Source: Clostridia bacterium (lineage in GTDB: Bacteria > Bacillota > Clostridia > Oscillospirales > CAG-272). From it: a stretch of DNA of 64,000 bases. The notes below the pieces were generated by a model. It saw only the letters and a list, made by a program, of their open reading frames with translations. It searched no databases and was not told the origin of the DNA. The stretch's first letter is position 1. Each line of letters opens with the position of its first letter. The stretch lies in assembly GCA_017473865.1 (NCBI GenBank), contig JAFUJB010000016.1, positions 240,917-304,916 of the forward strand, in the 5' to 3' direction. Positions 14,461-15,120 of this stretch are shown here, piece by piece. Both the position numbers and the translations under genes were made by a program.

Positions 14461-15120
14461 ATGAAAAGAATAATGAAACGCGTGTTTACCCTCCTCGCTG
14501 CCATTCTAGTCTTAGCAAGTATGTCGGTAACTGCTTTTGCGGCAGGCGCTGTAACATATAACGGCAATGCAAAAAAGTTCATTTTTGAACCCGGAAGCGA
14601 ATATTCACCTACAGATTTATTCACGGATTTCAAAGGTGTAATGCCCGGCGATAGCATCACACAAAAACTATTCATCAAGAACGATGTGTCAAACAACGTT
14701 AAGATCAGGCTTTACATTCGCTCTCTAGGTGCAAAAGAAGGTTCAAAAGACATTTTATCTAAATTGAATCTGAGGGTATCGCAAAATGGTGATTCTAACC
14801 TTTTTGATGCGCCTGCCGACCAAACAGCACAGCTTACTGAATGGGTATATATAGGCACATTTTACTCCGGTGCAGAAATTGATTTGAATGTCACACTTGA
14901 TGTACCGATAGATCTTGGAAATGAGTATCAGGAAGCCGTAGGCTATCTTGAGTGGCAATTTAAAGCCGAAGAATTACCCGTTGACCCTGGTGATCCGAAG
15001 CCGCCGCAAACAGGTAATACAACGAATCTAACCATTTATATCGCTCTTACGAGTGTGAGTGGACTTGTTTTAATATTCTTGCTGGTGTTCGGACGCCGCA
15101 GGAAGCAAGAAGAAATCTAA
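14461..15120 (+). CDS. TasA/camelysin-like domain protein with a C-terminal (S/P)PXTG sortase sorting signal. Candidate cell-wall-anchored base subunit.
   Basis: Ordinary SPase-I signal (…VTAFA/AGAV). Camelysin-like motifs MPGDSITQKLFIKN and GNEYQ…WQFKAEE. C-terminus is PPQTG + hydrophobic TM (LTIYIALTSVSGLVLIFLLVF) + a charged tail (GRRRKQEEI). Confidence 0.6.
   Translation: MKRIMKRVFTLLAAILVLASMSVTAFAAGAVTYNGNAKKFIFEPGSEYSPTDLFTDFKGVMPGDSITQKLFIKNDVSNNVKIRLYIRSLGAKEGSKDILSKLNLRVSQNGDSNLFDAPADQTAQLTEWVYIGTFYSGAEIDLNVTLDVPIDLGNEYQEAVGYLEWQFKAEELPVDPGDPKPPQTGNTTNLTIYIALTSVSGLVLIFLLVFGRRRKQEEI

Follow-up and report, generated by a model that had tools for sequence, protein, structure and literature searches.

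The gene that closes an 11-gene, same-strand operon in the 64-kb window (the whole stretch of DNA analyzed here) probably encodes a terminal, wall-anchored subunit of a heteropolymeric surface fiber of the TasA/BsaA type, a predicted substrate of a class B sortase that we refer to below as the anchor. Since it combines a TasA fold with a wall attachment tail, its most likely role is to attach the multipart fiber to the cell. The open reading frame (ORF) proved to be real, its 219 residues being identical to the protein quoted in an earlier note on this DNA. The order of the operon is TetR, SipW, six TasA/BsaA-like paralogs, an adhesin, a seventh paralog, and the anchor; Table 1 lists these genes together with the parts of the anchor protein and the region upstream of the operon.

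TABLE 1 Features of the operon, the anchor protein, and the upstream region (nucleotide positions are those of the window; residue numbers are those of the anchor)
Feature	Position	Strand	Description
Candidate invertible switch	1859-3310		Bounded by perfect inverted repeats of 20 nt, 1859-1878 and 3291-3310
Tyrosine recombinase gene	1950-3074	-	Inside the repeats
Near-consensus promoter	3068-3096	+	Inside the repeats, facing the TetR-SipW-TasA operon; 11/12 matches, extended -10 TG
TetR family regulator	3475-4077	+	First operon gene; PF00440, E value 2.6e-11
SipW-type (archaeal/ER-type) signal peptidase I	4084-4617	+	TIGR02228, 105.9 bits (cutoff, 51.85); SipW model, 96 bits; PF10502 match
Six TasA/BsaA-like paralogs	4674-5372, 5434-6081, 6123-6728, 6760-7527, 7564-8298, 8446-9015	+	Some match PF12389, TIGR04090, TIGR04088
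Secreted adhesin	9030-13838	+	1602 aa; Pfam, BNR/sialidase-like, VWA, DUF5979; no sorting signal
C-terminal extension of adhesin	13776-13811	+	WLDGDSWCNNIF; collinear with the donor arm at the N terminus of the paralogs
Seventh TasA/BsaA-like paralog	13853-14458	+	201 aa; weak TIGR04090 and TIGR04088 matches
Anchor gene	14461-15120	+	219 aa
Signal peptide of anchor	Residues 1-27		A25-F-A27 at its end
TasA superfamily beta-sandwich domain of anchor	Residues 28 to about 175		
Cell wall sorting signal of anchor	15001-15105	+	PPQTG, hydrophobic span, basic tail
PPQTG	Residues 181-185, nt 15001-15015	+	Read from the sequence
Hydrophobic span	Residues 190-210, nt 15028-15090	+	21 residues; read from the sequence
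RRRK basic tail	Residues 212-215, nt 15094-15105	+	C terminus reads RRRKQEEI
Strong hairpin	15117-15170	+	From the anchor's stop codon (15118-15120); RNA fold

The anchor gene is tightly packed against its neighbor, with the stop codon of the seventh paralog only 2 nt ahead of its ATG and an AGGAGG preceding that ATG. The hairpin that begins at its other end (ΔG, -27.9 kcal/mol; z, -6.4; none of 200 shuffles was equally stable) is likely the operon terminator, and a consensus terminator scan did not flag it. Within the operon, the paralogs starting at 4674, 6123, and 13853 had no Pfam match at all. The adhesin carries an N-terminal BNR/sialidase-like beta-propeller (PF13859, E value of 1.3e-19; PF13088) and may be a glycan-binding or sialidase tip.

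Homologues of the anchor are numerous. A word-indexed search returned 1935 of them, and an exhaustive HMMER search in which only the mature domain served as the query gave 1187 clusters at 50% identity with E values of ≤1e-3 (145 with E values of ≤1e-30), so that the family comprises at least 1187 clusters at this identity. None of the homologues has a Pfam domain on record, one bears the record name “sortase B protein-sorting domain-containing protein,” and scans of the anchor against Pfam and NCBIfam found no domain besides the sorting signal. It thus belongs to a large Clostridia family without a Pfam or NCBIfam domain model. The hosts are Oscillospiraceae, Acutalibacteraceae, and Lachnospiraceae, mostly metagenome-derived genomes from gut, feces, or rumen, together with a cultured representative, Hespellia stercorisuis DSM 15480, whose homologue carries PPKTG.

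The C-terminal part of the anchor, separated from the domain by a short Pro-rich linker, is the only sorting signal of this type among the ORFs of the window. It scored 19.0 against TIGR01167 (LPXTG_anchor), above the NCBIfam cutoff of 15.9, and 17.4 against PF00746, just below the Pfam cutoff of 20. The anchor itself had no match to TIGR03063 (srtB_target) at E values of ≤0.1; the cutoff of this model (18.15) was reached by three homologues, P0112 (31.6), P0018 (21.0), and P0050 (20.6), and a fourth, P0079 (16.7), remained under it. Conservation was high at the key positions: P182 and T184 were invariant among 28 close homologues, and of 92 diverse representatives at least 90% kept T184; in this set the signal took the form xPxTG or only xxxTGD, ahead of a membrane span and a basic tail. 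Likewise, 58 of the 64 family ORFs found in genome loci had xxxT[G/D] and a membrane span, PPxTG being the commonest form. With the TIGR01167 cutoff passed and the Thr conserved throughout the family, the sorting signal described in the earlier note goes beyond chance. The specificity that the note had attributed to the sortase B of Clostridioides difficile, recognition of (S/P)PXTG, is documented (PMC4155245, PMC4591827).

The enzyme that would process this signal is less easily placed. No sortase gene was detected in the 64-kb window, either by its TLxTC motif or by tblastn with the SrtB of a relative, and the dependence of the anchor on a sortase in this strain is consequently something that we infer. 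Among 59 related loci, six had a class B sortase within 10 kb of the anchor (TIGR03064, 198 to 208 bits against a cutoff of 153.75; PF04203); in the related locus L058 it lies directly downstream of the anchor, and in the four closest relatives it lies ca. 1.3 kb downstream. DNA similarity between the window and these four relatives is limited to positions 14443 to 16187, that is, the anchor and two small ORFs, and the sortase that follows this block in the relatives is missing at that site both in the window and in a 98.5%-identical strain. The two ORFs (15180 to 16133) are Cys rich and encode 92 and 223 aa, the latter with a weak AP2-like match; they are coconserved with the anchor at 81 to 87% DNA identity in the four relatives, where the class B sortase comes next, while in the window a minus-strand HTH gene and a YpsA-like gene follow.

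These observations bear on whether the membrane span of the anchor is ever removed. A base subunit that stays tethered to the membrane, its span never cut, at least here, where a linked sortase may have been lost, would agree with the missing gene at the syntenic site where the relatives have srtB, with the PF00746 score under the cutoff, and with the lack of a TIGR03063 match. It would also agree with the behavior of C. perfringens strain 13, whose BsaA oligomers are freed by boiling SDS (PMC11580942), which indicates that they are membrane bound rather than wall bound and counts against a wall anchor. However, 53 of the 59 related loci also have no nearby sortase, so that the absence of one from 64 kb is uninformative, and a near-invariant Thr followed by Gly or Asp directly before the span would be difficult to account for if no cleavage occurred and favors a cleavage site over a plain membrane anchor. 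We regard a permanent membrane tether as quite unlikely.

The mature domain of the anchor is, judging from the structural model and the profile alignments, a member of the TasA fold class and a remote homologue of the seven TasA-like paralogs in its operon. Although the AlphaFold2 model of the full-length protein was poor, that of the mature domain, built with 101 diverse sequences, reached a pLDDT of 90.3 and a pTM of 0.81 and showed a jelly-roll beta-sandwich similar to those of TasA or AbpA. Foldseek gave two matches at E values of ≤0.001, both to Bacillus subtilis TasA (5of2 and 8aur). When a profile of 92 family sequences was compared with 180 TasA-like ORFs of related loci by hhalign, the local mode gave a probability of 95.7% (E value, 9.6e-9; 46 columns), superseding a comparison with only the seven paralogs of the window (77%, 22 columns), and the global mode aligned the two groups collinearly over the whole domain. 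The curated models, in contrast to this, miss the relationship: the anchor was unmatched at E values of ≤0.1 by PF12389 (Peptidase_M73), TIGR04090 (BsaA family), and NF046066 (TasA), which do match neighboring paralogs, and a profile search of PDB sequences found nothing meaningful. The camelysin-like motifs that had first suggested a TasA-like protein, MPGDSITQKLFIKN (residues 61 to 74) and GNEYQ...WQFKAEE (residues 153 to 171), therefore reflect a real though remote homology.

A contrast drawn in the same note, between an ordinary AxA signal peptidase site in the anchor and SipW-cognate signals in the other paralogs, fared less well. The AxA site is present, but the contrast is insecure, since the G-x-V-T-Y of the anchor aligns with the G-T-L-A-Y of the paralogs in the profile alignment and since the model for the SipW-cognate signal (TIGR04088), unmatched by the anchor, reaches its cutoff in only two of the seven paralogs.

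The genomic context is conserved. The order of the operon recurs in about 59 genomes of Acutalibacteraceae, Oscillospiraceae, Lachnospiraceae, and other groups, H. stercorisuis DSM 15480 among them, and a Tyzzerella metagenome-assembled genome (MAG) has the identical gene order. Only two of the 59 genome loci, both on contigs truncated upstream, were without TasA-like ORFs. Of 63 loci, 53 had a TasA-like ORF directly upstream of the anchor, 45 had a giant ORF (about 600 to 2400 aa) ahead of that TasA-like ORF, and most of the longer loci had SipW-like ORFs. In many Clostridia, the fixed place of the anchor is the last gene of a SipW/TasA-like operon.

In C. perfringens, BsaA polymerizes by donor-strand exchange and is then locked by an intermolecular isopeptide bond that joins Asn35 of the incoming arm to Lys74 of the groove, with Glu56 as the catalyst (PMC11580942). 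The triad is widespread among the TasA-like ORFs of the related loci, in which we found the Asn in 178, the Glu in 174, and the Lys in 139 of 179 sequences. Asn35 and Glu48 were invariant in the alignment of the window paralogs and, by eye, all seven keep the BsaA Asn and Glu plus a Lys after a PG motif. This retention of the triad residues implies an isopeptide-locked heteropolymer. The anchor family is different: at the triad positions it has F40 in 85 of 92 sequences, a variable position 55, and Q, D, or E at position 68 in 90. Lacking the Asn-Glu-Lys triad, the anchor would pair with the fiber only noncovalently. Thus, of the covalent connection from fiber to peptidoglycan proposed in the earlier note, the fold, the conserved signal, and the synteny hold, but the link to the fiber would be noncovalent and that to the wall alone covalent.

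The N-terminal arm of the anchor is very well conserved (V31, Y33, F40, and F42 were each kept in 83 to 89 of the 92 sequences) and is collinear with the donor arms of the paralogs in the profile alignments. In the AlphaFold2 monomer, this arm is packed in cis with high confidence. Together with the missing triad, the packing could be read as a sign that the anchor stands alone in the wall, its TasA-like fold self-complemented, and is coexpressed with the fiber but outside it, for instance as a lateral binding or capping factor. A monomer model is blind to the difference between cis and swapped arms, however, and the strictly conserved place at the end of fiber operons across families of Clostridia makes this explanation very improbable.

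A further arm was found in the adhesin. Past its last Ig-like domain, the C-terminal extension has an aromatic residue, Asn1592 at +9, and a Phe at +11, in the motif W-L-x-G-x5-N-x-F. This strict motif was found within the last 32 aa of 26 of the 91 ORFs of ≥600 aa in the related loci and in one of 1105 control ORFs, and it had no other occurrence in 90,197 residues of large proteins. The pattern suggests that the adhesin could be hooked onto the fiber by a C-terminal donor strand carrying the isopeptide Asn.

We can picture the assembly as follows. After Sec export, the C-terminal membrane span would keep the anchor at the membrane. A class B sortase whose gene lies elsewhere in the genome would cleave the Thr184-Gly185 bond and link Thr184 to peptidoglycan. 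The adhesin would start the chain by inserting its C-terminal Asn arm into the first TasA-like subunit, shaft subunits would follow arm to groove and become isopeptide locked, and the last free subunit arm would dock in the groove of the wall-bound anchor, which would in this way join the fiber by donor-strand complementation without an isopeptide lock. The polarity is the weakest step. We infer it from a simple count: n shaft subunits plus the adhesin provide n locking grooves and n + 1 Asn arms, so that in the simplest topology the last arm goes into the groove of the anchor.

The opposite polarity would make the anchor a nucleator similar to TapA, wall bound and donating its own arm to the first subunit, with polymerization proceeding outward. 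The near-invariance of V31, Y33, F40, and F42 and their collinearity with the donor arm of the paralogs speak for this arrangement, as does the role proposed for B. subtilis TapA, that of first-strand donor and TasA anchor (PMC9674648). On the other hand, the arm of the anchor has a Phe at the position of the locking Asn, and the Asn arm of the adhesin would be left without a Lys/Glu groove, save on a separate fiber. We consider outward growth from the anchor unlikely, although the conserved arm suits it just as well, and favor the order in which the adhesin comes first and the groove of the anchor last.

Upstream of the operon, the recombinase gene and the promoter enclosed by inverted repeats (Table 1) look like an invertible on/off switch of the operon. 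The related locus L016 has the same design with a 19-nt inverted repeat (2164 to 2182 and 3619 to 3637), and in the Tyzzerella locus L001 there is a small switch with a 24-nt perfect inverted repeat (1791 to 1814 and 2063 to 2086) between an integrase gene and sipW. Variation between strains was also apparent within the operon. The MAG GCA_045542195.1 (L063) is 98.5% identical to the window over positions 14538 to 25128 and has no DNA similarity upstream; the breakpoint corresponds to codon 26 of the anchor, at the junction of signal peptide and mature protein. The anchor of this MAG (P0002) differs from ours in the mature sequence by A30T alone and has a different signal peptide. The upstream cassette of adhesin and subunits appears to have been swapped between strains.

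Taken as a whole, the locus may, as a tentative picture that we hold with less than even confidence, encode a hybrid pilus that would be common in gut Clostridia and have three parts: a tip adhesin Asn locked to the first subunit, a locked shaft of the BsaA type, and a triad-less, sortase B-anchored base, all under a recombinase-switched promoter. To our knowledge, neither a donor strand at the C terminus of a non-TasA adhesin nor a sortase that solely anchors a donor-strand fiber has been described, and among C. difficile SrtB substrates we know of none with a TasA-fold passenger domain or a SipW operon context.

Wall anchoring of TasA-type fibers has been proposed before. According to one preprint, LPxTG proteins and sortases are often encoded in BsaA/TasA operons, and in most C. 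perfringens strains srtB has next to it a triad-less BsaB homologue with an LPXTG signal that might anchor BsaA to peptidoglycan (PMC11580942). SLH and LPXTG anchors also occur in bacterial TasA-like loci, and AlphaFold 3 predicts their coassembly with the fibril (bioRxiv 10.64898/2026.01.04.697558). The statement that this coupling had not been described, made when the anchor was first noticed, is therefore outdated: a wall-anchored TasA-type design is predicted in these two recent preprints, although never shown experimentally, and since both already propose the coupling, the present anchor is one more member of a predicted kind. It differs in its large family without a curated domain model, its SrtB-type PPxTG, and its fixed terminal place after a giant adhesin.

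Comparison with the nearest systems illustrates these points. The LPXTG-bearing BsaB of C. perfringens is, like the anchor, a triad-less TasA family paralog with a sortase signal in a SipW operon, and its tie of BsaA to peptidoglycan is speculative (PMC11580942); compared by description, its signal is LPXTG and it stands beside a sortase named as class B, whereas here the signal is PPxTG and the protein comes last, after a giant adhesin, without an adjacent sortase. The Clostridium amylolyticum protein A0A1M6GRE1 likewise combines a sortase signal with a TasA superfamily locus and a dedicated signal peptidase (bioRxiv 10.64898/2026.01.04.697558), and its entry into the fibril through donor-strand complementation is a prediction of AlphaFold 3 only, but by its description it belongs to a separate, AbpX-like subfamily. 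In B. subtilis, TapA is also an accessory of the SipW/TasA operon that fixes the fiber on the cell and is involved in donor-strand complementation (PMC9674648). It differs in having no sorting signal, in not being covalently linked to the wall, and in being the proposed strand donor, and TasA fibers have no isopeptide locks. With the SrtB substrates of C. difficile (PMC4155245, PMC4591827, PMC5569036), the anchor shares the PPxTG-type motif, the membrane span, and the basic tail. The resemblance to the basal pilins of sortase-assembled pili and to PapH of P pili lies in the last arm of the chain ending on a base subunit; unlike them, the system described here would have donor strands and spontaneous isopeptides and no class C sortase, CnaB fold, usher, or chaperone. 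The basal pilin of a sortase-assembled pilus was ruled out as an identity for the anchor, since the top folds were of the TasA type and not CnaB and since the linked sortases were of class B only.

The attachment of TasA-type fibers to cells is an unsettled matter even for Bacillus and C. perfringens, and this locus offers a clean, testable architecture with a tip, a shaft that is locked, and an anchor in the wall. If true, the anchor family would mark a widespread adhesion organelle of gut commensals that unites assembly by donor strands, spontaneous isopeptide locks, and anchoring by a sortase.
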